A stretch of 41,007 nt of DNA from Thermoanaerobaculia bacterium (GCA_035519355.1 DATIWM010000232.1:1-41007); one strand, 5' to 3'. Positions 17,450 to 33,471 are shown, numbered from the stretch's first letter. The notes: a model not told the origin generated them from the letters alone. Program-made: numbers and translations.

Positions 17450-17450
17450 G

Positions 17451-19756: not shown

Positions 19757-20559
19757 CCGGCTCGCCGTCGGCGCAGGAAAGATGGGAACGTGCTTACGCC
19801 GCTCTCCGGGATCGGGAAGGGCGGTCCGATCCGGAGGTCCGCCTCGCCCGGCCGTATCTGACGAAAGGCCCCCTGGCGGCTCAATGGCAGATCCGGGCGC
19901 GGACTTTCGACCGCTTCGTCGCCGCGGTCCTCGCCCCCCTCGAACGCGAGAGAGGACGGCCGCTCGGCATTCTCGATGTCGGTGCGGGCGACGGATGGCT
20001 CGCGGCCCGGATGGCGGGCCGCGGCCACCGCGCGGTCGCTCTCGACGTGAGGCTGGACGCCGTCGACGGCCTCGCGGCGGGCGCTCTCTTCACACGTCCG
20101 AGCGTGCGGCGCTTCGGCCGTGTCGCCGCCTCCTTCGAGGCCCTCCCGGTCCCCGGAGCGTCCTTCGACCTGGCCGTCTTCAACGCGTCGATCCACTACG
20201 CCGCCGACCTTCGGCGCGTCCTCTCCGAGGTGCGCCGCGCCGTCCGGAAAGGAGGGTGGATCGCCGTTCTCGACTCGCCGTTCTACGGAAGCGCGGAGGC
20301 GGGCGAGGCGATGGTGAGACAGAAGGAGCGGCGGACGCGCGAGACGCTTCCGGATCTCGCCGACGGACTTCTCGCGCTGCGGTCGATCGAGTACCTCACC
20401 CGGGAGCGGCTCGCCGCCGCGGCGGAGCCGTCGGACCTCGCGTTCCGCCGGATCCGCGTCCTCTACCCCCTCTCGTACGAGCTTCGGGGCCTTCAGGCCT
20501 TCCTTCACCGCGATCGGCCGCCCTCGCGATTCGACGTCTGGGTCGCGAGCGTCACGTGA
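19753..20559 (+). CDS. Class I SAM-dependent methyltransferase 2
   Basis: This is the 3' part of track ORF 18904..20559. ATG at 19753 overlaps the upstream stop (ATGA). Motif I is ILDVGAGDGWLAARMAGRGHRAVALD, with post-motifs FDLAVFNASIHY and GGWIAVLDSPFY. Confidence 0.8.
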   Translation: MTGSPSAQERWERAYAALRDREGRSDPEVRLARPYLTKGPLAAQWQIRARTFDRFVAAVLAPLERERGRPLGILDVGAGDGWLAARMAGRGHRAVALDVRLDAVDGLAAGALFTRPSVRRFGRVAASFEALPVPGASFDLAVFNASIHYAADLRRVLSEVRRAVRKGGWIAVLDSPFYGSAEAGEAMVRQKERRTRETLPDLADGLLALRSIEYLTRERLAAAAEPSDLAFRRIRVLYPLSYELRGLQAFLHRDRPPSRFDVWVASVT

Positions 20560-20566
20560 GCCACCC

Positions 20567-21931
20567 GTGATCCTCCTCGTCAACCCGCGGGCCACGAGGC
20601 CGAAGAACCGGCGCTTCCCTCTTTCGCTGATGGCGATCGGCGCCGCCCTGCCGGAGGACGTGCCCTGGAAAATCCTCGACGGGAATCTCCCGGACGCCGA
20701 TCCGTTCGCCGAGGCGGCGGGCGAGATCGAACGACGCCTCGGCACGGCGGATCCGGTCACCCTCGTGGCGATGACCGTCATGCCGGGACCCCAGCTGGTC
20801 GCGGCCGTCCCGATCGCGAGGCGACTGAAGGAGCGCTTCCCCGGAATCCCGGTCGTCTGGGGCGGCTACTTTCCGACGCTCTACCCCGGCCCCTGTCTGA
20901 AGGCGCCCTACGTGGACTGGGTCGTCCGCGGGCAGGGAGAACGGACGATCCGGGAGCTCCTCGACGTCCTGGCCGGGATGCGGACGGCGGAGACCGTCGC
21001 CGGCCTCGCCTGGAAGGACGGCGCGACGCCGCGGATCAACATCGAACGGCGATGGGAGGGCCCTGACGCGTTTCCCGACCCGCCGTACGGGAAGATCGAC
21101 GTCGAGACGTACCTCCATCCGACGCTCCTCGGCCGGCGGAATGCGGTCCATCACGCGTCGATCGGGTGCCCGTACACCTGCAACTTCTGCGGTGTCATCG
21201 CGGCTTTCGGGAGCCTCGAGAAGTTCGCCTCGCCGGCCCGGACGGAGGCCGTGCTCTCGTACCTCGTCAGAGCCCACGGTGTCGACGCGGTCCACTTCTA
21301 CGACAACAACTTCTTTCTGCGGGAAGAGTATGCGGAGGAGCTCTGCGGGCGGCTGATCCCCCTCGGCCTCCGCTGGTGGTGCGAGGCGCGGATCGACGTG
21401 ATGCTCCGCTACTCGGACCGGACCTGGGAGACGATCCGCCGCTCCGGCTGCGCGATGATCTTCTTCGGCGCCGAATCGGGCTCGGACGAGACGCTCCGGA
21501 GGATGTCGAAGAACCTGACCACGGCCGAGACGCTCGCGCTCGCGGAGAAGGCGAGGACGTTCGGCATCGTGCCGGAGTTCTCGTTCGTCTTCGGCGACCC
21601 GGACGATCCCGTCGGAGAAGCGGAGAAGACCCTCGCCTTCATCGGAAAACTGAAGGCGGTCAACCCGGCGATGAAGCTGATCACCTACTTCTACACCCCG
21701 ACGCCCCAGCGCCGGGGGACGTACGGAAACATCGATGCCCTCGCCGGAACACCCGAATCCCTCGAGGAGTGGGTGACGCCCGACTGGGTCGGATGGATGA
21801 CGCACGAGAGTCCGCCCGTGCCGTGGCTGACGCCGGAGCTGAAGGAGAGGATCGAGGCCTTCGCCGCCGGGTTCGGGCGCGGATCGCCCGCCGACCCCGA
21901 GGCCTACGGCCATCTGAGAGTCTCCCCGTGA
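20567..21931 (+). CDS. B12-binding-domain radical SAM protein (class B rSAM) 2
   Basis: 454 aa with GTG start. The N-terminal B12-type domain reads ILLVNPR...FPLSLMAIGAAL...VAMTVM. The rSAM motif CPYTCNFC lies at 21167-21190, followed by FGAESGSDETLRRMSK. It is clearly a paralog-type partner of 17451..18935 but divergent in sequence. Confidence 0.85.
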   Translation: MILLVNPRATRPKNRRFPLSLMAIGAALPEDVPWKILDGNLPDADPFAEAAGEIERRLGTADPVTLVAMTVMPGPQLVAAVPIARRLKERFPGIPVVWGGYFPTLYPGPCLKAPYVDWVVRGQGERTIRELLDVLAGMRTAETVAGLAWKDGATPRINIERRWEGPDAFPDPPYGKIDVETYLHPTLLGRRNAVHHASIGCPYTCNFCGVIAAFGSLEKFASPARTEAVLSYLVRAHGVDAVHFYDNNFFLREEYAEELCGRLIPLGLRWWCEARIDVMLRYSDRTWETIRRSGCAMIFFGAESGSDETLRRMSKNLTTAETLALAEKARTFGIVPEFSFVFGDPDDPVGEAEKTLAFIGKLKAVNPAMKLITYFYTPTPQRRGTYGNIDALAGTPESLEEWVTPDWVGWMTHESPPVPWLTPELKERIEAFAAGFGRGSPADPEAYGHLRVSP

Positions 21932-22620
21932 GCGGACGCGACGCCGCGGCGCTCCCCGCCGAGACGGCTTACCGTCTCTGGGCCGAAAGCTACGACGAGG
22001 AGAATCCGCTGACGACGCTCGACCATCGCGCGGCCGCGCTTCTGACGCCGCCGCTCGCCGGCCGGACGCTCCTCGACGCCGCGTGCGGGACCGCGCGCCG
22101 TCTGGCGTTCGGCGGGAGTGCCGGCCCACGGCTCGCCGCCGGCGTCGACCTCGTCTTCGAAATGCTGCGCCGGGGACGCACCGACAGAGCCCGCCGCCAG
22201 ACGACCGCCGCCGGCGATCTCCGTGCCCTGCCGCTGCGGTCTTCCCGATTCGACGTCGTCTGGTGCCGCCTCGCCGCCGGGCACCTTCCCCGGATCGCCC
22301 CCCTCTATCGCGAGCTGGCTCGGGTTCTCGCTCCCGGAGGGAGAGCGATCGTCACCGATTTCCACCCGGCCGCGGTCGCCGCCGGCCACCGCCGGCTCTT
22401 TCGCGACACCTCGGGGAAGAGCCATCTCGTGGCGCACGTCGTTCACGAGCCGGAGGCGCACGAGCGTGCGGCCGCCGCCGAGGGCCTTCTCCTCGAGAGC
22501 CGGATCGACCTCCCGATCGGAGAGGAGGTCCGCGTCTTCTTCGAGCGCGCCGGCGCCCTCTACTGGTACGAGCGCGATCGGGGTCTGCCGCTTCTCCTCG
22601 CCCTCCGATTCCGCCGATGA
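21928..22620 (+). CDS. Class I SAM-dependent methyltransferase 3
   Basis: This is the 3' part of track ORF 21166..22620. GTG at 21928 overlaps the upstream stop (GTGA). Motif I is LLDAACGTARRL, with later motifs FDVVWCRLAAGHL and LAPGGRAIVTDFHP. Confidence 0.7.
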   Translation: MSGRDAAALPAETAYRLWAESYDEENPLTTLDHRAAALLTPPLAGRTLLDAACGTARRLAFGGSAGPRLAAGVDLVFEMLRRGRTDRARRQTTAAGDLRALPLRSSRFDVVWCRLAAGHLPRIAPLYRELARVLAPGGRAIVTDFHPAAVAAGHRRLFRDTSGKSHLVAHVVHEPEAHERAAAAEGLLLESRIDLPIGEEVRVFFERAGALYWYERDRGLPLLLALRFRR

Positions 22621-23696
22621 AGCTCCGGCTCGTCACGAAAACGCGCACGATCGACGTGGCGGGGGACCGGATCGTGTCGCGAAGCGGCGAAGCGGACCTC
22701 GTGCTCGACGTCGGCGGGGCGGACCTCCGACCCGGGCTCGTGAATGCGCACGATCATCTCCACCGCAACCACCTCCCGCGCCTCGGCGAGCCGCCCTATG
22801 CGAGCGCCGCCGCCTGGGGAGCGGACCTCCATGCGCGTTTCGCCGACGACCTCGCGCGCCGGCGCCTGCTGCCGCGCCGCGACGCGCTGCTCTTCGGCGC
22901 TCTCAAGAACATCCTCGGCGGCGCGACCTGGGTCGTCCACCACGACCCGTGGGAAGACGAATTCGACCGGGACTTCCCCGTGCGGGTCGTGCGCATTCCG
23001 GCCGTGGACGCCCTCGACGACGCGACGGCCGCTCCGTCCACCGGTCCCTGGGCCCTTCACCTCGCGGAGGGTACCGACCCGAGATCCATCGTCGAGATCG
23101 ACGAGGCGGCGGCGCGCGGCCTCCTCTCGGACCGGCTGGTCGCGGTTCACCTCGTGGGCGCGGCCCCGTGGGGAGTCTCCCGGCTCGCAGCGGCCGGCTG
23201 CGCCGCTGTCTGGTGTCCGACCTCGAACCGATTCCTCTATGGAGCGACGGCTCCGCGGGCGCTCTTCGACTCCGGCGTCGACGTGCTCATCGGGACCGAC
23301 GCGCTCGTGAGCGCCGAGGGGACGCTCTTTGCGGAGCTCAAGGCCGCGCGCACACTCGGCTTTCTGTCGGACTCGCGGCTCGAGGAGGCGGTCGGCGGCA
23401 CGGCGAGGAGGCGGCTTCTTCTTCCGCCGCCGTCGCTCGAGCCGGGCGCGAGAGCGGACGTCATTGCGCTCGGTGCGCCGCTCCTCGAGGCGGCGCCGCG
23501 CGACGTCATGCTGGTGCTCACGGGCGGGCGGCCCGTCCTGGCGGACGAGAGGTATGCGGAAATCTTCGACGCCGCGGCCGTTCCACCGGAGGCTCTCACG
23601 GTCGGCGGTGTTCCGAAGCGCGTGGCCGCGCCGCTGGCTTCCGTCGCGCAGGCGGCCATCCGCCTCGCGCCCGAGTGCGGCCGTATCCTCCGCTGA
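22617..23696 (+). CDS. Amidohydrolase-superfamily protein, MtaD/chlorohydrolase-like (putative nucleoside/aminohydrolase deaminase)
   Basis: This is the 3' part of track ORF 22083..23696. ATG at 22617 overlaps the upstream stop (ATGA). It carries the metal-binding HxH (GLVNAHDHLH, from about 22737), ALHLAEG, VAVHLV, WCPTSNRFLYG and LIGTDALVS, which follow the MtaD/ATZ-TRZ family pattern. Confidence 0.7.
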   Translation: MKLRLVTKTRTIDVAGDRIVSRSGEADLVLDVGGADLRPGLVNAHDHLHRNHLPRLGEPPYASAAAWGADLHARFADDLARRRLLPRRDALLFGALKNILGGATWVVHHDPWEDEFDRDFPVRVVRIPAVDALDDATAAPSTGPWALHLAEGTDPRSIVEIDEAAARGLLSDRLVAVHLVGAAPWGVSRLAAAGCAAVWCPTSNRFLYGATAPRALFDSGVDVLIGTDALVSAEGTLFAELKAARTLGFLSDSRLEEAVGGTARRRLLLPPPSLEPGARADVIALGAPLLEAAPRDVMLVLTGGRPVLADERYAEIFDAAAVPPEALTVGGVPKRVAAPLASVAQAAIRLAPECGRILR

Positions 23697-23700
23697 ACAG

Positions 23701-25293
23701 ATGGACCTCGGCCGGCGGCCCCCTGGCCCCCACCTCGTCGTCGCGACTCTGCTCGCGCTGTTTGTCGGCTTCTCTCTCCGCGACCTCGGCCGGGCGCCGA
23801 AGGTCTACGAGGACGAGCCGGTGATTGCAGCGCCGGGATACATGCTCGTGACGACAGGCGTCTTCGGAAACCCTCTCCAGCGCGGCTTCTTCGGGAGCGA
23901 GCGGCACTGTTACGAGTTCATGCCGGTCTTCCCGATTCTCGACGGGGCGTCGATGCGGCTCTTCGGGACGGGGCTTTTCGCGGTCCGGATCGTCGCCCTG
24001 GGGCTCGCGGCGGGAGTGCTTCTGCTGACACATCGCATCGCGTCGAGGATTCTCTCGGCCGCGCACGGTGCGACGGCGGTCGCCCTTCTCGTTCTCGCGC
24101 CGGTCATGTCTCCCGTGGAGCACCTCCGAACGGGGATCCCGATGGTGGATCTCGCGCGCCTCGCGCGCTACGACGTGGCGGTGTCTCTGTTCGGTCTCGC
24201 GGCGCTCTTCGTCCTGGCGCCCGTCCTCGAAGAAGGGGCTGCGCCGGGCGCGGGACGGCTCTTCGCAGTGGGGATCCTCACCGGCGCGGCCACGCTGAGC
24301 CATCTCTACGGAGTCTTCTGGCTGCCGGCTCTCCTGCTGGCGATCCTCGCCACGCGGGGACAGCGCGTCCTCCGGCGGGCGTGCGTCGTCTCCGGCGCGG
24401 GGTTCCTGCTCGCGCTCCTCCCCTGGATCCTCTTCGTCGCATCGGGATGGTCCGACTTTCTCGCGCAGAACCGCCACTACGGCGAGAGGTTCGACCTTCT
24501 CGACTCACGCTTCTACGCCTCGAACCTCCGCGGAGAGATCGCCCGGTACGGGCTCATCCTGGCCGCGGCGACCCGGCACCTGGCGCCCGTGCTTTTCGCC
24601 GCATCGGGGCTGGCCGGCGTCGTCCTTCTCGTCCGGCGCAGCCGCTCCGGGGATCGCGCGTCGCGGGCGCTCCTCGTGATTCCGGGTCTCATCGGCCTCC
24701 TCTTCGCCCTTCTCCTCCAGTCCAAGAACGTGATGTATCTCGCGACGCTCTGGCCGCTCTTTGCGCTCGTGGCCTCGCTGGGCCTTCACGTGGCCTGGGG
24801 GCACGGACGGCTCGCCCGGTCCTTCCTCGTCGCGGCCGGCCTCCTCGTCGCCGGCGAGGGGATCTTCTCCCTGCGGCGCTTCTCTCTGGAGGCGGCGGTC
24901 ATGACGCCCTACGGCGACTTCACCTCGAGACTCTCGGGTCTGGTGCCGGGCGGCACGCGCGTCATGGGCATGCAGCACTGGTGGCTCGGCCTCGTCCGGA
25001 CCTCGCCGGATTACGTGACCGTGCCTTTTCCGGGCATGCTCCGCCGCTACACGCCGGAGCCCGTCCGCTTCGAGGAGGCCACGGACGCGCTGGCTCCGCG
25101 AGTTCTCCTGCTCGACGAGATCCTGCGCGGATTTCTCCGCGCGAACGTTCGGGTCGACTCCGAGTTCCACGATCTGGCCGTGGCCATGCAGGGCTGGCTG
25201 GCGGTGAGAGGCGTGAGCGTGGGGGCGGTGGAAGATCCGACATACGGCCGCGTCGAGGTCTACGCCATTCGGCCCGGCGTGCTGTCAAAATGA
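23701..25293 (+). CDS. Polytopic membrane glycosyltransferase, GT-C fold (ArnT/PMT, GT39/83-like)
   Basis: Track ORF 23329..25293 trimmed to the ATG at 23701. There are about 10-12 hydrophobic helices. An acidic first-loop motif (VYEDEPVIAAPGY) follows TM1, as in GT-C enzymes. The C-terminal soluble domain is about 150 aa. Confidence 0.7.
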   Translation: MDLGRRPPGPHLVVATLLALFVGFSLRDLGRAPKVYEDEPVIAAPGYMLVTTGVFGNPLQRGFFGSERHCYEFMPVFPILDGASMRLFGTGLFAVRIVALGLAAGVLLLTHRIASRILSAAHGATAVALLVLAPVMSPVEHLRTGIPMVDLARLARYDVAVSLFGLAALFVLAPVLEEGAAPGAGRLFAVGILTGAATLSHLYGVFWLPALLLAILATRGQRVLRRACVVSGAGFLLALLPWILFVASGWSDFLAQNRHYGERFDLLDSRFYASNLRGEIARYGLILAAATRHLAPVLFAASGLAGVVLLVRRSRSGDRASRALLVIPGLIGLLFALLLQSKNVMYLATLWPLFALVASLGLHVAWGHGRLARSFLVAAGLLVAGEGIFSLRRFSLEAAVMTPYGDFTSRLSGLVPGGTRVMGMQHWWLGLVRTSPDYVTVPFPGMLRRYTPEPVRFEEATDALAPRVLLLDEILRGFLRANVRVDSEFHDLAVAMQGWLAVRGVSVGAVEDPTYGRVEVYAIRPGVLSK

Positions 25294-25324
25294 AGAGCGA
25301 AGAGAGGCAAGGGAGGGAGACCCG

Positions 25325-26125
25325 GTGAGTTCGGCGGCTGGAGAGACCCCCGCGCCTGGGCCCTCGTTCTTTGACGACATCGCGAGGGACTACGACGCCC
25401 AGATGTCCCGCGTGCCGGGCGATCTCTGGATGCGCGAGGCGTTCCAGGAATTCGTGATCCGCGGGCTCGCTCCGGGGGAGGTCGTGCTGGATTTCGGCTG
25501 CGGCACGGGCGTCGACGCCCGGGTCTACTCCGAGCGGGGGTTCCGGGTGATCGGATACGACTCCTCGGTGGCGATGACGCAGGTGGCGGCGAATCGCTGC
25601 GGGACCGGCATCGGCGGAAACCTCGTCGAGATCTTCAGCGGCCCGTACGAAGAGTTCCTGGGGAGACCCTGGTCGAGGACCCCACCGTCCGCCATCGTCT
25701 CGAACTTCGCGGTCCTGAATCTCGTCCCCTCGCTTCGCGCCGCCTTCGCGCGCTTTCACGAGATCCTTCAGCCGGGCGGGAGCGTCTTTCTGAGCCTTCT
25801 CAACCCCTGTTACGTCCGGAATCTCGTGACCCCCGGGCTCCGGCGTCTCTTCTTTCGGGCCCTCCGGCACGGGATCACGGAGTTCCCTTCGGCGAAGGTT
25901 CCGACGCTCCTCTACCGCGAGCGCTTCGTGAGGCAGGCGGCGGAACCGTTTTTCGCGCTGGACCTTCGGGCCGGGGTCGGCGCCGTCGTGAACCACGCGG
26001 CGATCGCCGGATCGTGGCGCGAGCCCCGGGGGTGGCGAGAACGGATCGAGCACCGGTTCTCCTCCACGCGCGTCCTGGCCGGCGCCGGCAAGTTCACGTT
26101 CCTGAAGCTTCGAAGGCGCGGGTGA
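25325..26125 (+). CDS. Class I SAM-dependent methyltransferase 4
   Basis: GTG start with GGGAGGGAG upstream. Motif I is VLDFGCGTGVDARVYSERGFRVIGYDSS, with later motifs IVSNFAVLNLV and LQPGGSVFLSLLNP. Confidence 0.8.
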   Translation: MSSAAGETPAPGPSFFDDIARDYDAQMSRVPGDLWMREAFQEFVIRGLAPGEVVLDFGCGTGVDARVYSERGFRVIGYDSSVAMTQVAANRCGTGIGGNLVEIFSGPYEEFLGRPWSRTPPSAIVSNFAVLNLVPSLRAAFARFHEILQPGGSVFLSLLNPCYVRNLVTPGLRRLFFRALRHGITEFPSAKVPTLLYRERFVRQAAEPFFALDLRAGVGAVVNHAAIAGSWREPRGWRERIEHRFSSTRVLAGAGKFTFLKLRRRG

Positions 26126-26168
26126 AGGAATCCCGGAGTCCCACGCGACCCTCGCGGCACCCCGAGCC

Positions 26169-27140
26169 ATGAAAGAGGCCCTCAAACGGCTGATCTTCGG
26201 AGCGCACCGGATATCGCAGTGGTGCGCCGTCGGCGTCCAGGACCCTTCCCGTCTCTTTCGCCTCTCCCTCGAAGACGGGACGCTCTCCGTCGACGTGACC
26301 GAGACGAGCTCGGTGGCCGCCTTGCGGCCCGTGACGTTGGCGATCCGCACCGGGGACCGAATTCCCCGGTACGCCCTCGAGAGCAGCCGGTTCGTCCTGA
26401 AGGTACGCCCCTCGGCGGCCGACGACTGGGTGGGCGAGATCACTCTTCGTTACCTGAGGGACGTGAGGACGGACGTGGCGGGAATCTCCCTCTTCACGGT
26501 CGCTTCTCACCGGAACCGCTCCCTTCCGCCGGTGACCTATCTCCGCTTCCGCCTCCGGCAGCGGTGGGAGATTTTCCGTGACAAGACGCCCTACAACTTC
26601 CGGATGATCCCCTCGGAACTCTTTGCGCTCTACGTCTTCTACTACGTCCCCCGGCCGGTCTATCTCGTTTCCGTGGCGTTCGAGGGGGCGTCCAACATCT
26701 TCCCGATGGACCTCGTCGGCCGAATGGGGGACGACCTGTTCCTTCTGGCCCTGCGGAGCACGAGCCCCGCGATCCGGCTCATGACGGGCTCGAAGCGCCT
26801 CGCGCTGACGGCCGTGCCGTTCGAGGAGAAGGACGTGGCCTACCGGCTCGGTACGCACCACAAGAAGGAGACGATCGACTGGGACACGCTTCCCTTTCGA
26901 GGGATCCCGTCCCCTCACTTCGGCCTTCAGGTCCCGGCCTCGGCGCTCGGCCTTCGCGAGGTCGAGGTCGTGACGACCGACGTGGTGAGCACCCACGTTC
27001 TCTTCGTCACGAGGATCGTCCGCGACGAGAGGTGGCGGGAGGGCCGGCAGCTCTGCCACATCCCCGGCATCCTGCGCGAGGTCCTCACGGGCGCCTCCCC
27101 GTCCCTGGCCGCGGGCCACGAAATCGACGGGCTTTCATGA
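26169..27140 (+). CDS. Hypothetical protein; C-terminal half resembles a flavin-reductase-like FMN-binding split-barrel domain
   Basis: 323 aa with protein-like composition. Residues about 150-300 (VSVAFEGASNIFPMDLVG...LALRSTSPAIRLM...ALGLREVEVVTTDVVSTHVLFVTRIVRDE) match my recollection of the Flavin_Reduct (PF01613) layout. The N-terminal 140 aa are unrecognised. Confidence 0.45.
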   Translation: MKEALKRLIFGAHRISQWCAVGVQDPSRLFRLSLEDGTLSVDVTETSSVAALRPVTLAIRTGDRIPRYALESSRFVLKVRPSAADDWVGEITLRYLRDVRTDVAGISLFTVASHRNRSLPPVTYLRFRLRQRWEIFRDKTPYNFRMIPSELFALYVFYYVPRPVYLVSVAFEGASNIFPMDLVGRMGDDLFLLALRSTSPAIRLMTGSKRLALTAVPFEEKDVAYRLGTHHKKETIDWDTLPFRGIPSPHFGLQVPASALGLREVEVVTTDVVSTHVLFVTRIVRDERWREGRQLCHIPGILREVLTGASPSLAAGHEIDGLS

Positions 27141-28187
27141 CCCGCGCATCAGCTCCCGGGACCTCCGGAAGACCTCGTCGACGCTGACCCGCATCAGACA
27201 GAGAAGGTCTTCCCGGCCGCAGACGGGCTGCAGACAGGCGCCGCATTCGAGATCCTCACTGTAGAAGCCTGCGGCGTTCGGCCCTTCCGGACGGCTCCAC
27301 GAGGAGCGGCTCGAGCCGAAGAGGGCCAGAGTCGGCACGCCCTGCACCCAGGCGAGGTGCATCAGTCCCGAATCGTCACTGACGACGAGCGACGCCAGAG
27401 ACATGACGGCGAGCGCGACGGCCGGGGTCGTGGCGCCCGCAAGATCAAGAAGACTCTCCCCCAGGGCCTCGCGCAGCGCGACGAAGCGTGGCGGCACGGG
27501 GGTGGCGGCGAGCGACATGAGCTGGCACCCCTCTCGTTCGAGGCGGCGCCCGAGCTCCACGTAGCGCTCGAGGGGCCATTGCTTCGTCTTCCACCCTCCG
27601 GCCGGATTGAGGCAGACGAGGGGCCGCGCCTCATCCCGTCCGGCTCCCGCGAGAAGCTCGCGCGCCTCGGCGAGCGGCCCCGGCTTCACGTGCGATGCGA
27701 GCACGGGATCGAGTCGTCCCAGGCCGATCCACTCGGCCGCATCGAGGTACCGTGTCAGCGCGGTCCGGGGCGCGTGCCGGTCGAAGCCGACCCAGGCTCC
27801 GGGCGCGAGAAGCCGCGTCAGGAAGCGCGACCAGCGGTTGCGCTGAAGGTCGAGGACGGCCGGGACGCGGTGCCGTCGCAGCGCGAGCGCGACGCGGAGG
27901 ATGGAAAGTCCCTTGGGGATCTTCGGGCGGCGCGCGTCGATCGAAAAGACGGAGTCGACGTCCCGGTGGGCGGCGAAGAGCTCCCGGGAGCGGACATCGG
28001 TCACGACGTCGATTCGGGCTTCCGGGAGTCGGCGCCGAAGCGCGGCGATCAGCGGCAACGTGATGGCCGTGTCGCCGAACGCGTGAAGGCGGATGACGAC
28101 GAGCCGCCCCGGATCCGACGTCCCCGCGAGCGGAACGCCGATCAGTCCGTCGGGGCTGAAGGGAGGGACGGGGAACGGCCCGGACAT
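27135..28187 (-). CDS. Glycosyltransferase family 9 (heptosyltransferase-like, RfaF/WaaC type)
   Basis: Track ORF 27135..28337 trimmed to the ATG at 28187 (MSGPFPV...). The GT9 N-terminal signature is LVVIRLHAFGDTAITLPLIAALRRRLPEARIDVVT, with C-terminal VVSDDSGLMHLAWVQGVPTLALFG. It overlaps the preceding convergent gene by 6 nt. Confidence 0.8.
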   Translation of the reverse strand: MSGPFPVPPFSPDGLIGVPLAGTSDPGRLVVIRLHAFGDTAITLPLIAALRRRLPEARIDVVTDVRSRELFAAHRDVDSVFSIDARRPKIPKGLSILRVALALRRHRVPAVLDLQRNRWSRFLTRLLAPGAWVGFDRHAPRTALTRYLDAAEWIGLGRLDPVLASHVKPGPLAEARELLAGAGRDEARPLVCLNPAGGWKTKQWPLERYVELGRRLEREGCQLMSLAATPVPPRFVALREALGESLLDLAGATTPAVALAVMSLASLVVSDDSGLMHLAWVQGVPTLALFGSSRSSWSRPEGPNAAGFYSEDLECGACLQPVCGREDLLCLMRVSVDEVFRRSRELMRGS

Positions 28188-28233
28188 CGCGGGGAATGCT
28201 ACGCGCGCAGGCCGCGGATTGTTACGATGGTGC

Positions 28234-29352
28234 GTGCGCGTGGCGCTCGTCGTGCCGGGGGGCGTGGACCGGAGCGGGCAGCAGCGCGTCATCCCGGCTC
28301 TGCTCTGGCTGATCGAGAGGCTCGCCCGTCGGCACACGGTGCACGTCTTCGCGCTCTCGCAGGAGGCAGAGCCGGGGGACTACCCTCTCCTCGGCGCCCA
28401 CGTCCACAACCTCGGCATGCCCTCCCGCTCGGCGTGGCCGGGGCAGGCGCTGCTGCTCGCCGGGCGGAGGCTCCTTCGTGGAGTCGCGCGGCACGGCCCC
28501 TTCGATGTCGTTCACGCCTTCTGGGCGAACAATCCGGGCTTTCTCGCCGCGCTGGCGGCGCGCCGCCGGCACCTGCCCCTCGTGGTGAGCCTCGGCGGAG
28601 GGGAACTCGTGGCCCTCAGCGACATCCAGTACGGCTCCCAGCTCCTCGCCCGGGAGAGGCTGAAGGTCCGGTGGACCCTGCGCAGCGCCTCGCGCGTCAC
28701 GGTCGCCAGCGGCCCCATGGACGAGCTCGCACGCCGCCACGGCGCGACGCCGCAGATCGTCCCTCTCGGCGTCGACGGCGCCTTCTTCGCCGAGTCGACC
28801 CCGGGCGGTCCTCCCTTCCGGCTCCTCCACGTCGGAAGCCTCAATCGCGTCAAGGACCAGGCGACTCTTCTTCGCGCCCTCCGCCGGGTCGTCGACCGCG
28901 GCGAAGACGTTCACCTCGACGTCGTCGGCGAGGACACGCTCGACGGCTCCGTGCAATCGCTCTGCGCCGCTCTTGGTCTCGTGTCTCGCGTGACGTTCCA
29001 CGGGTTCCTTCCGAGCGCCCGGACGCAGCCGCTGTACCGCCTCGCGCACCTCTTCGTTCTGAGCTCCCGTCACGAGGCGGGCCCGCTCGTCGTTCTGGAA
29101 GCCGCCGCGTCCGGGGTACCGACGGTCGGGACCGCCGTGGGACACGTCCGGGACTTCGCCCCGGACCGCGCCCTCGCCGTCGCCGTCGGCGACGACGGCG
29201 CCCTCGCCGAGGGCGTCCTCTCCCTCCTCCGCGACGAGCCGCGGCGACGGGCCATGGGTGCGGCGGCCCGGCGCCAGGCCCGCGAGCACGACGCCGACGC
29301 GACCGCCGCCGCGTTCGAGGAGATCTACCGTCAGGCCGTCGGAGCCCCGTGA
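28234..29352 (+). CDS. Glycosyltransferase family 4 (GT-B, RfaB-like)
   Basis: Track ORF 28093..29352 trimmed to the in-frame GTG at 28234 (VRVALVVPGG...); GTG at 28240 is an alternative. The GT-B E-x7-E region is SSRHEAGPLVVLEAAASGVPTVGTAVG. It is divergent from the GT9 gene across only 46 bp. Confidence 0.8.
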   Translation: MRVALVVPGGVDRSGQQRVIPALLWLIERLARRHTVHVFALSQEAEPGDYPLLGAHVHNLGMPSRSAWPGQALLLAGRRLLRGVARHGPFDVVHAFWANNPGFLAALAARRRHLPLVVSLGGGELVALSDIQYGSQLLARERLKVRWTLRSASRVTVASGPMDELARRHGATPQIVPLGVDGAFFAESTPGGPPFRLLHVGSLNRVKDQATLLRALRRVVDRGEDVHLDVVGEDTLDGSVQSLCAALGLVSRVTFHGFLPSARTQPLYRLAHLFVLSSRHEAGPLVVLEAAASGVPTVGTAVGHVRDFAPDRALAVAVGDDGALAEGVLSLLRDEPRRRAMGAAARRQAREHDADATAAAFEEIYRQAVGAP

Positions 29353-31766
29353 GCGCCGGCGAGAAAACGCCGGATCCGCCGCGCACCGGCCGAAAATTCC
29401 CACGAGTCCCTCACGGCCCGCGCCAGCGCGCGCGGATGCCGAAGAAACGATCGCCAGAACGCGGACCGCGAGATCGGAAGCCCGAATCGCGAGCCGCCGG
29501 GGAACAGGTCGTCGTGCAGCCGGGCAAGCGCGAAGCAGCCCAGTATTCCGCGGCGGAAATAGGAATCGAGGAGGGCCATTCGCGCGAGCACGCGCGGGCC
29601 GACCCAGCCGCCGATCAAGCGGGTGTTCGTGATGGCATCGAACCGGACGAATTGCCCTTGCTTCTCGAGGTTCAGGAGCTTCAAGGTGAAGCCCGCCGCT
29701 TGAACCGCCCGCGTCGCCAGGTCAGCCGTGTCGTGTCCGCGGAAGCGCCCGGGGGCGCCGCCGGCGGTCTCGTCCTCCCGGAACGGGAAGAAGCCGTCCG
29801 GCACCGCGCGCAGGGCCTCGCGATAGGCCGCGACGCGCATGACGACTGCGAACGTCCCGTGGCTGGCCGTCGCCGTGCGCGAGACGCAGGAAACGGCCGC
29901 GACGTTCGGATCCTCCAGCTCGCGAAGGACGTGCCTCCACGGGTCCCGCGAGACCCAGAAGACGTCCGTGTCGACGAAGGCCAGAAAGGGCGTCGTCGCG
30001 CGGGCCAGGGCGTCGTTGTAGGCCTCGTGGAAGTCCCGGCACGCGGGAGATCGCATCAGCAGCGTCACGCCTTCGAGCCGTTCCCCGGAGAGATTCCTCT
30101 CCTCGGAGTCGTCGAAGACCTGCAGGTCCGCGTCGTCCGGCGGGACGGCCCGGGCGATGCTGGCGCGCCAGACCCGCACGAGATCCGGATAGACCGACGC
30201 CGTGTGGATCGTGACGCGACGCCTGCCGTCTGCCGCCGGCGCCGGAGACGCGGGAGGGGGCTGCAGAGGAGCGGTCGTGCGGGGAGACCAATCGCGCGGG
30301 CGGTAGCGCCCGTCCTCTCCGAAGCCGTTGTGCCAGAAGCCTCCGGCCCACGTCCCTCCCTTCCAGTGACTCGACCAGAAGACGCCGCCGCAAAACGTGC
30401 CCGACTTAAAGACGCCTCCGAGCATGACGCCCGACTCGAAGACCCCGCCGTCCCACTCGCACTCGAACAGGACGGCGCCCCGGTTCACCGTCGCGGGGCC
30501 GAAGCGCTCATGGATCCGAAGTTCGCCGGGCCGAAGTACCCGCCCTCGATCCGCGTCCTCCCGGTGGCGCGGCCGCCCGAGGAGACGGCCCGCCCGCCTC
30601 ACGAAGAGGCGGAGCCACGCGGCGGCGAGCCTCGGGCCGGAGGCTTCGGGCGCCACGTTGACCTTCACCTCTTCGGGGGGCGGAAAGACGGACCGGAGGA
30701 GGAAGCGGGCCTTGGCCACGGGAGACTCGATGAGGGACAGCCCCCTCGCCGTCCCCCCTTCGGAGGGACGGGTTCCTCGAAGCGCCGGAACTTCCGACGC
30801 CCGATCGAGCAGCGCCTTCGGCACGTCGCGCCGCAGCGCATCGAGAAATTCCGGAGCGAAGCTCCCCGGGAAGAGCTTCTCGATGACGTGGGCCGCACAG
30901 GCGACCGGCGCCAGACCGGCTCGCCGGTCGGCGTCGGAGAGCACGATCTGGAGAGGACCCGCCGGACGGGAGAGGAGTCGAAAGTCGTGAGCCTGAATGC
31001 CCCGAATCCCGAGCGCAGCAAAGTCCTCGGTCGCGTGGACGAGGAGATGCCTCCGGAGCGCGTTTCCGGTCGAAAGGAGACCGCGTATCCCCTCGCGTTC
31101 GAAGGGCTCCGCCGATGCGAGGAGCTCCTGCGTCAGATCGTAGGCTCTTCCGAGAACGGGGATCCGGAGGGCATAGTGGAGTTCGATCCGGATCGGATTT
31201 TCGGGGTCGGAGCACCCGGGGCGCACGACCTGCTCCCCTTTTCGGGCGAGAACGCGATGGCGCCGGGTGTCGAAGAGCCCCGTCCAGCCGAGAAGCGCGA
31301 GCGCGCGCGCCGCCTCATCCATCCGCCCGGGGTCGGCGAGGAGGAGATCGATATCCCCCATCGGGCGGTGCCCCGGGTCGGCCGTCCCCGCGAGGAGAAG
31401 AGCCGCTCCCTTGAGGGTGACGGCCTCGATCCCCTCGTGGAAGAGCGCCGACGAGACGTGGCCGTAGACCTCGAGCAGCTTCCCGCCCCGCGCCGCCGAC
31501 TGCCGGGCCTCGAACCGATGGAACTCCGCCAGCTCCGGCGGGAGCTCCTCGAGGTCCGGGAGGGTGGCGATCCGCGGGGCGACGCCCTGAAACGCGGAGG
31601 CGAAGGCCGCCAGCTCGACCGCGGAGGCTGCGGGCCGACGTCCGAGCGCCTCGAGAAGCGGGGCGGCCGTCTCCCGCGAGAGGGCGGCGACCGCCGCTTC
31701 GGAGAACCGCCCGAAGCCCGGCTCGCGAGAGAGTCTTTCCCAGTCGAAGCCGCGCGCGCCGAGCAT
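29331..31766 (-). CDS. Three-part fusion protein: N-terminal uncharacterised nucleotidyltransferase (NTP_transf_5/PF14907-like), central GGxF decapeptide repeats, C-terminal GT-A (GT2-like) glycosyltransferase domain
   Basis: 811-aa single ORF. The N-terminus has GHRPMGDIDLLL and IRIELHYAL, typical of PF14907. The centre reads EWDGGVFESGV/MLGGVFKSGT/FCGGVFWSSH/WKGGTWAGGF/WHNGFGEDGR. The C-terminus has VTIHTASVYPDL..., LQVFDDSEE and a DxD-like FVDTDVFW. Confidence 0.65.
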   Translation of the reverse strand: MLGARGFDWERLSREPGFGRFSEAAVAALSRETAAPLLEALGRRPAASAVELAAFASAFQGVAPRIATLPDLEELPPELAEFHRFEARQSAARGGKLLEVYGHVSSALFHEGIEAVTLKGAALLLAGTADPGHRPMGDIDLLLADPGRMDEAARALALLGWTGLFDTRRHRVLARKGEQVVRPGCSDPENPIRIELHYALRIPVLGRAYDLTQELLASAEPFEREGIRGLLSTGNALRRHLLVHATEDFAALGIRGIQAHDFRLLSRPAGPLQIVLSDADRRAGLAPVACAAHVIEKLFPGSFAPEFLDALRRDVPKALLDRASEVPALRGTRPSEGGTARGLSLIESPVAKARFLLRSVFPPPEEVKVNVAPEASGPRLAAAWLRLFVRRAGRLLGRPRHREDADRGRVLRPGELRIHERFGPATVNRGAVLFECEWDGGVFESGVMLGGVFKSGTFCGGVFWSSHWKGGTWAGGFWHNGFGEDGRYRPRDWSPRTTAPLQPPPASPAPAADGRRRVTIHTASVYPDLVRVWRASIARAVPPDDADLQVFDDSEERNLSGERLEGVTLLMRSPACRDFHEAYNDALARATTPFLAFVDTDVFWVSRDPWRHVLRELEDPNVAAVSCVSRTATASHGTFAVVMRVAAYREALRAVPDGFFPFREDETAGGAPGRFRGHDTADLATRAVQAAGFTLKLLNLEKQGQFVRFDAITNTRLIGGWVGPRVLARMALLDSYFRRGILGCFALARLHDDLFPGGSRFGLPISRSAFWRSFLRHPRALARAVRDSWEFSAGARRIRRFLAGAHGAPTA
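30305..30470 (-). repeat. Five tandem about 30-nt (decapeptide) repeats encoding xxGGxFxSGx inside the fusion gene
   Basis: The DNA shows a recurring gaagacg/cccgcc...gac unit, for example gactcgaagaccccgcc, gacttaaagacgcctcc and accagaagacgccgcc. The translation has 10-residue periodicity of GG-x-[FW]. Confidence 0.6.
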
Positions 31767-31778
31767 CGCCCGGAAAGG

Positions 31779-33068
31779 TCAGCGCACCGGCGCCCTCGGC
31801 GCGAGGAACCGGTCGTAAAGGAGCATCAGGGCCGTCGAGACGAAGCCAATGCCGGCAATCCAGAGCCACATCATCTCCGGGTGGCCGGTCCCCCCCGCCT
31901 TGAAGGGGTTGACGTAATGCTCCACGAGCGGCCCGGCGATGGCGCCGGCGACGAAGGTGCCGATGGCGATCGGCAGGAAGGCGAAGCCCATGTACGTCCC
32001 GACCTGCTCCGGCGGGGCGAGGTTGGCCACGTACTCGTAGTAGCGCGGGGACTGGAGCCCCTCGCCGAGGGCGAAGAGCATGATGCCGGCGATCGTGACG
32101 GAGAGCGTCGGCGAGGAGGCCAGGACGAGCCAGCAGACGCTCGCCAGAAGGAACCCGATCGTCATCGCGCGGATCGGCTTGAGCTTCTTGGCGAACGCCG
32201 TGATGGGGATCGTGACGAGGATGATCGCCCAGGCGTCGACGGTCTCGATCAGCTCGAAGCGCGGGAACTTCAGGACGTCGCGGACGTAGAACGGCAGCGA
32301 GTAGAAGACCTGCCAGAACATCGCCCAGAAGCCGGAGAAGATGACGAGAAAGGTCATGAAGCGCAGGTTCCCGAAGACCCGGACCATGTCGAGGAGAACC
32401 CCGGCCATCGACTTCGGCGGCGCGGCGTCGGGGGGACGGGGCGGCTCCCGGAAGAAGAGCAGGGTCGCCACGAAGAGGCAGAAGCTCGTGGCCGACGACA
32501 TGACGAGGACCCACGCGATCCCCACGTTCTCCCTCACCGGGATGGCGAGGATCGGACCGACGGCGCCGCCGATGTTCACCAGCGTGTAGTAGATCGAGTA
32601 ACCGAAGGCCTTGGTCTGGTCGGTCGTGGTCCGGGCGACCGTCCCGACGACGCACGGCTTGATCAGCGACCCGCCGACCGCCGTGACGACGAGGGCGAGG
32701 AGCGTGTAGGTCTTCGGCCCCCCGAAGGCCTCAACGAGCGGGGCGCTGGCGGGGAGGCCCGCCAGCCCGATGAGAAGGTAGCCCGCCGAGAAGATCGCGA
32801 AGCAGGTCATCAGGCTCCGCCGGAAGCCGAACCGGTCGACGACGGTCCCGGCCAGCGGCGGCAGGAGGTAGAGCAGCGTGTTGAAGACGCTCCCCGCCAG
32901 GAGCCCCGCCGTCGTCGGTCCGAGGCCGATGCCGTCCGCGATGTAGACGGCCAGGACCGCCTTCGACGCGTAGTAGGCAAAGCGCTCGAAGAGCTCGAGG
33001 GTGTTGGCGATCCAGAAGGTCTTCGAGAAGCCGGACTTCAGTTCGGCGAGCCGTGCGGCGAGATCCAA
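31779..33068 (-). CDS. POT/PTR2-family proton-dependent oligopeptide transporter (MFS)
   Basis: 429 aa. The ExxERFxYY signature (TLELFERFAYYASK) lies in TM1, and there are about 12 TM helices. The start is TTG at 33068 with AAGGAG 5 nt upstream. The gene ends 12 nt before the fusion gene start. Confidence 0.85.
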   Translation of the reverse strand: MDLAARLAELKSGFSKTFWIANTLELFERFAYYASKAVLAVYIADGIGLGPTTAGLLAGSVFNTLLYLLPPLAGTVVDRFGFRRSLMTCFAIFSAGYLLIGLAGLPASAPLVEAFGGPKTYTLLALVVTAVGGSLIKPCVVGTVARTTTDQTKAFGYSIYYTLVNIGGAVGPILAIPVRENVGIAWVLVMSSATSFCLFVATLLFFREPPRPPDAAPPKSMAGVLLDMVRVFGNLRFMTFLVIFSGFWAMFWQVFYSLPFYVRDVLKFPRFELIETVDAWAIILVTIPITAFAKKLKPIRAMTIGFLLASVCWLVLASSPTLSVTIAGIMLFALGEGLQSPRYYEYVANLAPPEQVGTYMGFAFLPIAIGTFVAGAIAGPLVEHYVNPFKAGGTGHPEMMWLWIAGIGFVSTALMLLYDRFLAPRAPVR

Positions 33069-33152
33069 GCGGTCTCCTTCATGTCGGCGACGCCCGGGAT
33101 CTTCCGGGGCGCCGCGGGCCGCGTCAACCGCCCGCCGCCTCCCGAGGAGGCC

Positions 33153-33437
33153 TCAGCGGCGCTCGCGGCCGACCAGCCAGCCGACGAGAAGGCCGACGAC
33201 GAGGGCTCCGATCGCCATCACGAAAGCGTTCTCGCGGCCCGCCCGGTCCACCGTCCGCCAGCGCCGCTGCAGCTCCCTCCGGACCTTCCGGCCGCGGGCC
33301 TGGGCGCTCTCCAGGGCCTCCTCGACGCGGTCGGCGATGACCTCCGCCAGCTCGCCGCCGCGCCCTTCGGCGTCCTTCAACCCGTCGCGAACCGATCCGA
33401 GAATGTCACGTCCCATGGAAAACCTCTCGGAAAGCAT
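33153..33437 (-). CDS. Small tail-anchored membrane protein, DUF883/ElaB-YqjD-like or YtxH-like
   Basis: 94 aa with ATG at 33437 and GGGAGGG about 7 nt upstream. A charged helical N-terminus is followed by a single C-terminal TM helix (AFVMAIGALVVGLLVGWLVG) ending RERR. Confidence 0.55.
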   Translation of the reverse strand: MLSERFSMGRDILGSVRDGLKDAEGRGGELAEVIADRVEEALESAQARGRKVRRELQRRWRTVDRAGRENAFVMAIGALVVGLLVGWLVGRERR

Positions 33438-33471
33438 CTTACGCCCTCCCTTCCGATAGACTTCGCCCGCT

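Follow-up and report, generated by a model that had tools for sequence, protein, structure and literature searches.

A single Acidobacteriota reading frame joins a PF14907 nucleotidyltransferase, a pentapeptide-type repeat module and a GT-A-like glycosyltransferase domain

Is a single reading frame that appears to encode a nucleotidyltransferase (NTase), a repeat and a glycosyltransferase-like domain a genuine protein and, if so, what might its three parts do together? We addressed this question in a 41,007-nucleotide stretch of DNA from a Thermoanaerobaculia bacterium (GCA_035519355.1 DATIWM010000232.1:1-41007), an uncultured, soil-type member of the Acidobacteriota; the stretch is hereafter called the window. 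An ORF opening with ATG was located at 29331-31766, where a preliminary description had placed an uninterrupted 811-aa frame, and the motifs named there, GDIDLLL, IELHYAL and FVDTDVFW, fall at aa 137-143, 194-200 and 597-604 (Table 1). The 22-nt convergent overlap claimed with the GT4 gene proved exact, as it is bounded by the two stops, TCA (on the plus strand, 29331-29333) and TGA (29350-29352). Codon-position GC (0.74/0.54/0.84), the PF14907 match (E=7e-21), the existence of homologues and the pLDDT of the AlphaFold model (mean 86.9) together demonstrate that the ORF is a real coding sequence, whose N-terminus, MLGARGFDWERL, is kept in homologues P0002-P0004 and P0007. The pTM of the same model is 0.59, so the placement of the domains relative to each other is predicted unreliably. 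On the opposite strand lies a spurious 2147-aa ORF (GC, 71%).

Table 1 Features of the 811-aa ORF and of its neighbourhood, in window coordinates
Feature	Position	Strand	Basis
Whole 811-aa ORF, NTase - module - GT-A-like	29331..31766	(-)	ATG start, uninterrupted frame
N-terminal PF14907 (NTP_transf_5) nucleotidyltransferase region, aa 1-394	30585..31766	(-)	Pfam match
PF14907 Pfam core, aa 58-299	30870-31595	(-)	Profile positions 17-248 of 249
GDIDLLL, DxD metal-binding motif (D138, D140)	31338..31358	(-)	Invariant in 7 sequences
IELHYAL, candidate third carboxylate E195, and H197	31167..31187	(-)	Alignment A1
Flexible junction, aa 395-408, fusion point	30543..30584	(-)	pLDDT <50 for aa 395-404
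Conserved beta-solenoid module, aa 409-495 (~87 aa)	30282..30542	(-)	Model and homologues
Ten pentapeptide-type repeats, aa 440-489	30300..30449	(-)	5-residue units
Pro-rich tether, aa 496-514, module to GT-A-like domain	30225..30281	(-)	Sequence SPRTTAPLQPPPASPAPAADG
GT-A-fold glycosyltransferase-like domain, aa 515-806	29349..30224	(-)	Foldseek, homologues
FVDTDVFW, DxD motif (D599, D601)	29955..29978	(-)	100% in 120 sequences
HDTADL, second invariant acidic pair (D679, D682)	29718..29735	(-)	100% in 119 sequences
GT4 glycosyltransferase, convergent, 22-nt 3' overlap with the 811-aa ORF	28219..29352	(+)	Glycos_transf_1 4e-28
GT9 (heptosyltransferase-family) gene	27135..28187	(-)	Glyco_transf_9 1.6e-23; 73% identical to L010 GT9
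MFS transporter, upstream of the 811-aa ORF, 12-nt gap	31779..33068	(-)	MFS_1 2e-32
Rest of collinear cluster: B12-rSAM, MTase, MTase, B12-rSAM, MTase, amidohydrolase-like, PMT_2-like GT-C, MTase, flavin-reductase-like	17208..27140	(+)	First six genes 58-77% identical to L010

The PF14907 profile matched the N-terminal part with E=7.3e-21 and 75.3 bits, against a gathering threshold of 31.2, upholding the earlier assignment. With the standalone PF14907 gene (329 aa) of a related locus (L010) this part shares 46% identity, and Foldseek matched its fold to that of TM1012, a minimal nucleotidyltransferase (2ewr; E=1.5e-4, TMt 0.62, rmsd 3.9, 163 columns). The residues K119-G120-A121, D138-I-D140-L and I-E195-L-H197 are invariant in 7/7 NTase-bearing sequences (alignment A1). 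We assign the domain to the Pol-beta-type nucleotidyltransferases and, from its intact G...DxD...E site, predict that it is active. The earlier statement that no function is defined for PF14907 is slightly outdated, a putative member, PsmN, being genetically needed for hexosylation (PMC6993621).

The C-terminal part had been described as GT-A glycosyltransferase-like, which the fold bears out. Foldseek returned, with probability 1.00, 6yv7 (PcManGT), 8yrl, hyaluronan and cellulose synthases, 6p61 (TMt 0.60), TarP, LH3 and K4CP; the pLDDT is mostly 90-98, and the DxD segment aligns with that of 6yv7 (E=4.5e-6 and 2.4e-6). The profile, by contrast, did not reach its threshold: PF00535 scored 17.2 bits, under its gathering score of 23.3, as it did in the relatives P0173, P0178 and P0181 (17.8-22.8 bits), and a precomputed PF00535 match is present in a minority of the homologues. 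These number 140 and measure ~295 aa when standalone and ~405 aa when fused to the module. In addition to the two invariant acidic motifs, an upstream Asp, D553, is kept in 97% of 120 sequences. D679 and D682 of HDTADL could provide the catalytic base or the acceptor site, and the domain is predicted, from its modelled fold and invariant DxD, to be a metal-dependent GT-A glycosyltransferase. It shares the GT-A fold, DxD-segment similarity and an invariant DxD with GT2 enzymes such as PcManGT of Pyrobaculum calidifontis, TarP and the hyaluronan/cellulose synthases, but differs from them in its score below PF00535, the absence of a transmembrane part and a ~100-aa helical C-terminal extension. 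Unlike these enzymes, the GT-A-like proteins are always paired or fused with the module, and they form two paralogous subfamilies (type A and type B), both without a Pfam model. With a PF14907 domain above threshold at one end and a GT-A fold carrying an invariant DxD at the other, the three-part fusion stands.

Between the two enzymes, the module consists of an N-cap (VLxxGExxxHERFGPxxVNRGAVLxxCEWDGG), ten xGx[F/W]x units and a C-cap (GFGxDGRYRPRxxxP). The five decapeptide repeats noted previously are indeed there, and the same stretch, aa 440-489, reads as ten 5-residue units (GGVFE SGVML GGVFK SGTFC GGVFW SSHWK GGTWA GGFWH NGFGE DGRYR) with F, W or M at position four, in the five-residue tandem manner of pentapeptide-repeat proteins. 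No DNA-level tandem repeat was found beneath this protein repeat. AlphaFold predicts an all-beta structure with a pLDDT of 96-98 over about aa 411-490, and of 94-98 for the module. No Pfam profile matched the module in the 811-aa protein at E<=1, and Foldseek gave a best E of 0.79 with probability <=0.21 and TM <=0.47, pentapeptide-repeat proteins making up most of the 50 matches listed. A transitive link to Pfam is provided by P0187, whose aa 220-276 match the module profile as well as LD_SV2 (E=6.7e-13) / Pentapeptide_4. The module resembles pentapeptide-repeat proteins (MfpA/Qnr, the Rfr proteins, the SV2 luminal domain) in its five-residue period, its central aromatic or hydrophobic residue and its all-beta, solenoid-like model, but its consensus is xGx[F/W]x instead of A(D/N)LXX, it comprises ~2.5 coils with dedicated N- and C-caps, it has no significant Pfam or Foldseek match, and it is proposed to be a transferase partner domain instead of a DNA mimic. 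It would represent a previously undescribed type of beta-solenoid without a Pfam family.

Does this module merely connect the two enzymes? The suggestion of a beta-solenoid linker fared well in its first half, given the solenoid-like, high-pLDDT model, but not in its second, since the module is usually a separate gene. Standalone module homologues number 40, and the typical free-standing protein, of ~95 aa, lies beside a GT-A-like gene. Against one and the same genome, the module is the best conserved part (75% identity, compared with 59% for module plus GT-A and 46% for the NTase). In a census of 69 module-bearing ORFs, 43 were standalone, 13 had the module before the GT-A-like domain, two after it and one on both sides, two had it behind the NTase and one behind an HprK-like P-loop protein. 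We conclude that the repeat module is an autonomous, very conserved domain, mostly encoded by its own gene, and not a passive linker. The Pro-rich tether that follows it differs in length and sequence between homologues.

The complete NTase - module - GT-A-like arrangement is unusual, as had been noted, accounting for 6/69 ORFs in this census, and, in line with the preliminary description, we know of no characterised protein with this architecture. Such an ORF could be an artefact, namely an assembly chimera, an uncorrected indel merging two genes, or a chance product of GC-rich DNA, in which long spurious ORFs arise. A one-base indel within the linker would switch between fused and split states, and neither L012, which represents the closest genome, nor the 86%-identical P0052 is fused; in L012 the NTase gene ends in the low-pLDDT linker and the adjacent module-GT-A gene lies in another frame. 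However, the six fused ORFs, with four divergent sequences besides the present one, derive from assemblies of JGI, ENA, Logan and NCBI. Independent assemblies yielded the full-length homologues P0002-P0006 (at 50-69% identity) as well as P0001 and P0317, and a 103.5-kb contig carries another 811-aa sequence that belongs to the same 90% cluster. Moreover, the linker region is of conserved length among fused homologues, and coding signal and domain evidence run along the entire ORF. Split states occur too: in L010, PF14907 (329 aa), a GDSL gene and module-GT-A (404 aa) belong to a cluster that is collinear in all other respects, and in L005/L006 a 498-aa PF14907-module gene shares 4 nt with the 296-aa GT-A-like gene that comes next. 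Because fused homologues occur in independent assemblies and the parts are separate, collinear genes in relatives, an artefact is scarcely credible and largely refuted, and we conclude that the fusion is natural and recurrent.

The surroundings of the gene are conserved as well. The first six genes of the cluster keep the order of L010 at 58-77% identity, and the GT4 gene is 71% identical to its L010 counterpart from residue 1. Its convergent arrangement recurs in L001, L003, L010, L012 and others, and the MFS gene also adjoins the counterpart of the 811-aa ORF in L001-L004 and L014. No cluster enzyme reached a curated NCBIfam cut-off. The 50 related loci all belong to Acidobacteriota, mostly Thermoanaerobaculia/Holophagales, and usually carry B12-radical-SAM and methyltransferase genes. 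A GT-A-like gene is present at every module locus, minimal loci consisting of the module and a type-B GT-A-like gene only. Within +/-10 kb, an NTase occurs at 17 of the 50 loci, an HprK-like gene at 20 and both at none, counts that ignore phylogenetic non-independence and in which HprK-like denotes sub-threshold matches (E 1.4e-3 to 0.029) and a P-loop motif only. The window holds no HprK-like gene.

From the gene, its domain identities and intact motifs, the pattern of fusion and fission and these co-occurrences, we infer an order of reactions, an adaptor role and the nature of the acceptor. The protein is probably a Rosetta-stone fusion that places phosphoryl/nucleotidyl-transfer and glycosyl-transfer steps on a shared beta-solenoid adaptor within an Acidobacteriota tailoring/glycosylation cluster; parts that relatives encode in two or three neighbouring genes and that are fused here would work jointly in one modification pathway. 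Both catalytic domains would act consecutively on one cytoplasmic acceptor. First, a hydroxyl would undergo phosphoryl-type activation or decoration, by the NTase in the present flavour of the cluster and by an HprK-like P-loop kinase in the alternative flavour, and a sugar would then be transferred from an NDP-sugar. The module, possibly a rigid mini beta-solenoid dedicated to the GT-A-like enzymes of this system as their subunit or docking/recognition domain, would hold together the enzymes and/or the acceptor. Further elaboration of the product might fall to GT4, GT9, B12-radical-SAM and SAM methyltransferases, and the MFS protein next door may export it.

A related succession of steps is known for pseudomycoidin, a lasso peptide of Bacillus pseudomycoides: the HprK-family kinase PsmK phosphorylates, and its tailoring partner PsmN, an 'uncharacterised nucleotidyltransferase', is then required genetically for the hexose on the phosphoserine phosphate (PMC6993621). 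Whether the NTase transfers the glycosyl group or pairs with a separate glycosyltransferase was explicitly left open (PMC9266682), and sets of NTase, HPr kinase and GT2 co-occur in Butyrivibrio lasso clusters (PMC7533575). The 811-aa protein resembles PsmN in its DxD (D138/D140, versus the essential D134/D136 of PsmN) and in its link to glycosylation and an HprK-family kinase, and GT2 genes co-occur in both settings. It differs in that its locus has no lasso core genes or precursor, that NTase and HprK-like genes are alternatives at such loci, never found together, and that the NTase is fused to GT-A through a beta-solenoid module of a kind not known from lasso clusters. PsmK/PsmN is therefore the nearest precedent by analogy only, because the locus lacks lasso or other RiPP core genes.

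Since the triad of NTase, HprK and GT2 is a known lasso-peptide tailoring set, the cluster might alternatively specify a RiPP-type pathway, with the module as a new type of precursor-recognition element. Like a PqqD-type RRE in function, it would offer a peptide to the kinase/NTase, the GT-A, B12-rSAM C-methyltransferases and methyltransferases. RRE domains likewise occur standalone or fused, and a SPASM rSAM is present in L003 and L014. The B12-rSAMs are weakly similar to RiPP C-methyltransferases, but they are as near to lipid, hopanoid and tetrapyrrole enzymes, all far under cut-off, and GT9, GT4 and the PMT_2-like GT-C point to a glycan or glycolipid. Furthermore, no conserved small or precursor-like ORF was found, and lasso core genes (the Asn-synthetase-like cyclase, B1/B2 and the precursor peptide), a protease and PqqD are absent among the window's genes and, as far as the components searched extend (an HMM set without lasso models), from the 50 related loci. 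We consider this pathway unlikely.

The lack of any other conserved small ORF or precursor also bears on whether the module itself is the acceptor. Cys436 or Tyr488, both invariant in 61/61 distinct module instances, would in that case be primed by the NTase or HprK-like kinase, glycosylated by the GT-A-like enzyme and tailored by rSAM and methyltransferases, with a carrier-protein or self-priming logic as in glycogenin, enzyme-fused borosin precursors and S-glycosylated glycocins. Carrier domains show the same distribution, standalone or attached before or behind any enzyme of the pathway, the two-gene minimum of module and GT-A-like resembles an enzyme-target pair, and the Pro-rich tether to the GT-A domain is flexible. 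However, the invariant residues are for the most part Gly or aromatic, that is, structural for a solenoid, and unrelated multi-repeat proteins such as P0186 share the Y-R-P-R tail as a capping motif, so that Y488 need not be a modification site. An invariant Ser is absent, T426 is conserved at just 92%, and a position between two enzymes is awkward for a released product. Such a role is quite unlikely, and we find it highly doubtful that the module is a new carrier/primer whose Cys436 or Tyr488, activated by a PF14907 NTase or an HprK-like kinase as mutually exclusive priming options, bears a phospho-linked glycan or small molecule that GT-A-like enzymes build before B12-radical-SAM and SAM methyltransferases tailor it. 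If it were, the logic of acyl/peptidyl carrier proteins would operate in glycosylation chemistry, and the 811-aa protein would be a self-contained primer with two enzymes.

For the favoured reading, with the module as an adaptor, GlmU-type enzymes offer an architectural analogy only. In these, a nucleotidyltransferase is fused to a beta-helix that is itself catalytic (a hexapeptide-repeat acetyltransferase). A sequence or significant structural relationship is absent, left-handed beta-helix proteins appearing only at E>6 in the module Foldseek search; the likeness lies in a nucleotide-binding alpha/beta domain and a beta-helical repeat that would serve consecutive steps in one polypeptide.

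The 811-aa ORF reads from its ATG through 29331..31766 of the minus strand as the single unbroken frame claimed in the preliminary description, with the expected motifs in place: GDIDLLL at aa 137-143, IELHYAL at aa 194-200 and FVDTDVFW at aa 597-604. The 22-nt convergent overlap with the GT4 gene proved exact, and the stop codon of the upstream same-strand MFS gene lies 12 nt before the ATG. The window has a GC content of 71%, and a spurious 2147-aa ORF (27357-33800, plus strand) crosses the GT9, GT4, 811-aa and MFS genes in frames or strands other than theirs. We regard this long ORF as an artefact of the GC-rich DNA because its translation is Arg/Pro/Gly-rich and has no coding signal; ORF length alone is therefore no proof of coding in the window. 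Codon-position GC (0.74/0.54/0.84), domain matches, homologues and a confident structure model show that the 811-aa ORF is coding. In the AlphaFold model, the mean pLDDT is 86.9, with values that reach 96-98 over the repeat module (about aa 411-490) and are mostly 90-98 across the GT-A domain, and low-confidence stretches at aa 331-356 and aa 395-404. No membrane segment was predicted in this model, which would place the chemistry of the protein in the cytoplasm.

Full-length homologues of about 800 aa, with 50-69% identity, are present in JGI, ENA, Logan and NCBI assemblies, and a second 811-aa sequence, from the same 90% cluster, resides on a 103.5-kb contig. That the single frame is an assembly artefact or a chance ORF is thus essentially excluded: homologues from independent assemblies, the second 811-aa member and the codon-position GC all argue for a genuine fusion. 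One partial homologue, P0005 (NCBI MGE5345726.1), comes from a 3.8-kb contig of an 'Acidithiobacillales bacterium' MAG and is the only one labelled non-Acidobacteriota; this label is probably a binning error, since every other locus is from Acidobacteriota.

The enzyme domains of the protein come from known superfamilies. The assignment of the N-terminal part to PF14907 (NTP_transf_5) was confirmed at 75.3 bits, against a cut-off of 31.2, and Foldseek matched the region to the minimal nucleotidyltransferase TM1012; G120, D138, D140, E195 and H197 are invariant in the sequences bearing this NTase domain. The C-terminal ~290 aa score below the gathering threshold of the GT2 family PF00535 (17.2 vs 23.3). 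Nevertheless, the GT-A-like fold proposed for this domain is well supported, as Foldseek matched it to many GT-A enzymes with probability 1.00, and the GT2 enzyme PcManGT (6yv7) was retrieved with the single sequence (E=4.5e-6) and with the family profile (E=2.4e-6), both matches centring on the DxD segment. Across 120 members of this family, hereafter type A, conservation is 100% for D599/D601 (DxD) and D679/D682 and 97% for D553. Judged by these conserved motifs, both transferase domains, which belong to different superfamilies, are predicted to be catalytically intact. A literature search for PF14907 or NTP_transf_5 yielded one mention, unrelated, in phosphonate clusters, and when annotated plasmids were searched for NTase-domain relatives that might show lasso contexts, no match was found.

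The two transferase domains flank a repeat that had been described as five decapeptides. Residues 440-489 equivalently form ten 5-residue units, the description we prefer, in which positions 1-2 are Gly-rich and position 4 is F, W or M. No tandem repeat exists at the DNA level, which rules out recent DNA slippage as its source. The suggestion that the repeat is only a linker was not borne out: used as sole query, the module retrieved 40 clusters of free-standing 84-124-aa proteins (57-75% identity), it has 21-22 invariant columns, it occurs in diverse architectures (see the census below), and when folded alone it gives an all-beta model with a pLDDT of 94.4 and a pTM of 0.85. When 1.84 billion representatives were searched exhaustively with the profile, the complete module was detected in about 20 clusters. 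A far larger set of long proteins matches the repeat part only, 4-16 times each, and consists of plain (G-G-x-F-x)n or (N-G-x-F-x)n arrays; in one of these proteins, P0187, the module profile and the Pfam SV2-luminal/Pentapeptide_4 models match the same residues, and another, P0186, has the C-terminal cap GYDxxGxYHPRGDSP in common with the module. The N-cap, …NRGAVLxxCEWDGG, is specific to the module. Foldseek comparison of the module model with solved structures gave no significant match (best E=0.79, TM at most 0.47), pentapeptide-repeat proteins making up most of the 50 structures listed, and a PDB sequence search found no relative, the best match (E=0.34) being a spurious membrane carrier. 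From these results we take the module to be a capped mini beta-solenoid that represents a divergent xGx[F/W]x pentapeptide-repeat class, at most a candidate member of the canonical pentapeptide family. This highly conserved domain is autonomous and previously undescribed; it has no Pfam model and is promiscuously fused to three enzyme classes. The xGx[F/W]x array proteins themselves (P0182-P0316; for example P0186, P0187 and P0215) reach 3553 aa and form a family with 670 representative clusters (E<=1e-3), mostly lacking Pfam coverage; many are AT-rich and Lys/Asn-rich, and some carry a GYDxxGxYxPRxDxP C-cap.

To our analysis of architecture, we applied a custom HMM per component to the six-frame ORFs of 54 loci. 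The module was found standalone in 43 ORFs, as module-GT-A in 13 and as NTase-module-GT-A in 6, with rarer NTase-module (2), GT-A-module (2), HprK-like-module (1) and module-GT-A-module (1) forms. A single AMH-module ORF, in locus L016, was taken as an artefact of a visibly frameshifted contig. The fused state is thus a minority (6 of the 69 module-bearing ORFs), and the tri-domain NTase-module-GT-A architecture is new. Ahead of the same convergent GT4 and GT9, the 718-kb Thermoanaerobaculia contig L010 carries three separate genes, for a standalone 329-aa PF14907 protein, a GDSL lipase and a 404-aa module-GT-A protein; amidohydrolase, methyltransferase and B12-radical-SAM genes come next, the gene order matching that of the window at 46-77% identity. 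The split point differs in L005 and L006, where a 498-aa PF14907-module gene overlaps a 296-aa GT-A-like gene by 4 nt. L012 is the closest genome representative; there the NTase gene has its own stop and the module-GT-A gene lies in another frame, the break falling exactly within the stretch that corresponds to the disordered linker of the window protein. Because the frame break sits in that linker, a single indel there could interconvert the fused and split states. When L012 (8787-11218) is compared with the window gene, DNA identity is 86% over the module-GT-A part and 67-68% over the NTase part, reflecting either much faster evolution of the NTase or a mosaic locus produced by recombination.

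A scan of species-representative genomes identified 42 loci, all in Acidobacteriota, mostly Thermoanaerobaculia and Holophagales, with a few in Bryobacteraceae, Ca. Acidoferrum and Ca. Angelobacter. Thermoanaerobaculia and Holophagales are abundant soil and sediment Acidobacteriota that are almost entirely uncultured. A GT-A-like gene is present in every locus. The gene directly downstream of a standalone module is, in almost all cases, a second, type B GT-A-like paralogue, which shares 29-33% identity with type A over the N-terminal ~140 residues, has a DAD motif and matches no Pfam or NCBIfam family whatever. Three loci with full flanks contain the module and type B gene only; around these minimal loci (L046-L048), the neighbouring genes are unrelated apart from those for lineage-specific secreted proteins. 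The clusters come in two flavours, one combining PF14907 with GT4, GT9, amidohydrolase and MFS genes, the other encoding a P-loop protein (GGGGKTTLAYAAAS…AEDVVWI) weakly similar to HprK-related kinase A (TIGR04352, E=1.4e-3 to 0.029), a label that is tentative because searches of PDB and Pfam gave no match. Among 50 non-redundant loci, 17 have the NTase, 20 the HprK-like protein and none both, a count to be read as descriptive since the loci are related to each other. In most loci with sufficient flanking sequence, either flavour comes with B12-radical-SAM genes; genes for SAM methyltransferases are common, chiefly in the flavour with PF14907. These features define a conserved, apparently unstudied Acidobacteriota gene cluster, marked by the module and by NTase/kinase alternation. 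A conserved secreted protein of ~1050-1110 aa adjoins the PF14907 gene in about 15 NTase-flavour loci; none was seen in the window.

Two transferase domains and a rigid conserved module are therefore co-encoded, fused or adjacent, across a phylum-level clade, and the fusion is direct evidence from the genome for joint action of a PF14907 nucleotidyltransferase and a GT-A glycosyltransferase. Among experimentally studied systems, the closest precedent is the pseudomycoidin lasso-peptide cluster, in which the HprK-family kinase PsmK phosphorylates the C-terminal Ser and PsmN, an 'uncharacterised nucleotidyltransferase' with essential D134/D136, is required for the addition of a hexose to that phosphate (PMC6993621). 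Reviewers of that work have left room for PsmN being a true nucleotidyltransferase, with the sugar added by a separate glycosyltransferase (PMC9266682); other lasso clusters combine NTase, HPr kinase and GT2 genes (PMC7533575). PsmN is a putative PF14907 member. The fusion bears on whether PsmN is a new glycosyltransferase or a nucleotidyltransferase needing a separate one (PMC6993621, PMC9266682), and it provides one polypeptide for testing that question; the locus is a concrete handle on PF14907 function, with the mechanism still inferential. Unlike the pseudomycoidin cluster, the window has no lasso or other RiPP core gene among its genes, and none turned up among the cluster components searched for in 50 related loci.

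The two transferase domains may act in consecutive steps on one acceptor, and the fusion and the kinase-or-NTase alternation are consistent with a four-part scheme. An acceptor hydroxyl would first gain a phosphoryl-type group, either phosphate from the kinase or a nucleotidyl/phosphodiester group from the NTase; the GT-A enzyme or enzymes would then glycosylate the primed acceptor; the module would serve as a shared docking or recognition element; and further glycosylation (GT4, GT9) and methylation (B12-rSAM, methyltransferases) would follow. The strict alternation points to two chemistries that can replace each other at one pathway step, an interchange that is experimentally tractable. The module itself being the acceptor or carrier is compatible with its fusion pattern, with the two-gene minimal unit and with the invariance of Cys436 and Tyr488, but most of the invariant module residues have a structural role, and the tail that holds the Tyr is a cap also present in unrelated repeat proteins. 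Tyr488 as a module-specific modification site is weakened by the same Y-x-P-R cap in unrelated multi-repeat proteins. A RiPP pathway using the module as recognition element is possible, but it lacks a precursor: no conserved precursor-like small ORF was found, the only candidates being antisense shadows of a large neighbouring gene.

Coordinates of the features in the window and in related loci
Locus	Coordinates	Strand	Feature	Remarks
Window	12259-16833	-	1524-aa protein	At least 11 CarboxypepD_reg (transthyretin-like) repeats
Window	17208-23696	+	Two B12-binding radical-SAM, three class-I methyltransferase and one amidohydrolase-like genes	Collinear with L010, 58-77% identity
Window	23329-27140	+	PMT_2-like GT-C, fourth methyltransferase and flavin-reductase-like genes	
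Window	29331-31766	-	NTase-module-GT-A fusion	811 aa
Window	33171-33416	-	Conserved 87-aa protein, C-terminal membrane anchor	Upstream of MFS, same strand
L006	3706-4695		Type B GT-A-like gene	~320-340 aa
L007	11514-12488		Type B GT-A-like gene	~320-340 aa
L008	9379-10344		Type B GT-A-like gene	~320-340 aa
L010	13424-14446		Type B GT-A-like gene	~320-340 aa
L005	6583-9912		Secreted conserved protein	~1050-1110 aa; no Pfam match
L009	3458-6622		Secreted conserved protein	~1050-1110 aa; no Pfam match
L010	3790-7050		Secreted conserved protein	~1050-1110 aa; no Pfam match

In the window, no gene of the radical-SAM/methyltransferase block reached a curated NCBIfam cut-off, the best resemblances, far below threshold, being to BchE, HpnJ/HpnR, a lipid 'ladder' rSAM and RiPP C-methyltransferases. 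As NCBIfam gave nothing near a curated cut-off for the radical-SAM, glycosyltransferase, methyltransferase, amidohydrolase or MFS genes of the cluster, its product cannot be named. The GT-C, methyltransferase and flavin-reductase-like genes stand where L010 has a second standalone module and type B gene. Of the 20 HprK-like loci, 7 likewise carry a flavin-reductase-like gene, usually just upstream of the HprK-like gene. The divergent GT9 and GT4 genes are ~31 nt apart (28188-28218) by homology-supported starts, leaving very small space for two promoters; with the longest-ORF starts, the two would instead share 245 nt. Proteins with CarboxypepD_reg repeats, such as the 1524-aa protein, are typical among Acidobacteriota surface proteins. 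The 87-aa protein, which we take to resemble YqjD/ElaB-type proteins, is 80% identical over 82 residues to an 87-aa protein of the related locus L003, and appears to be part of a conserved MOFRL/87-aa/MFS/fusion gene synteny rather than of the tailoring cluster.
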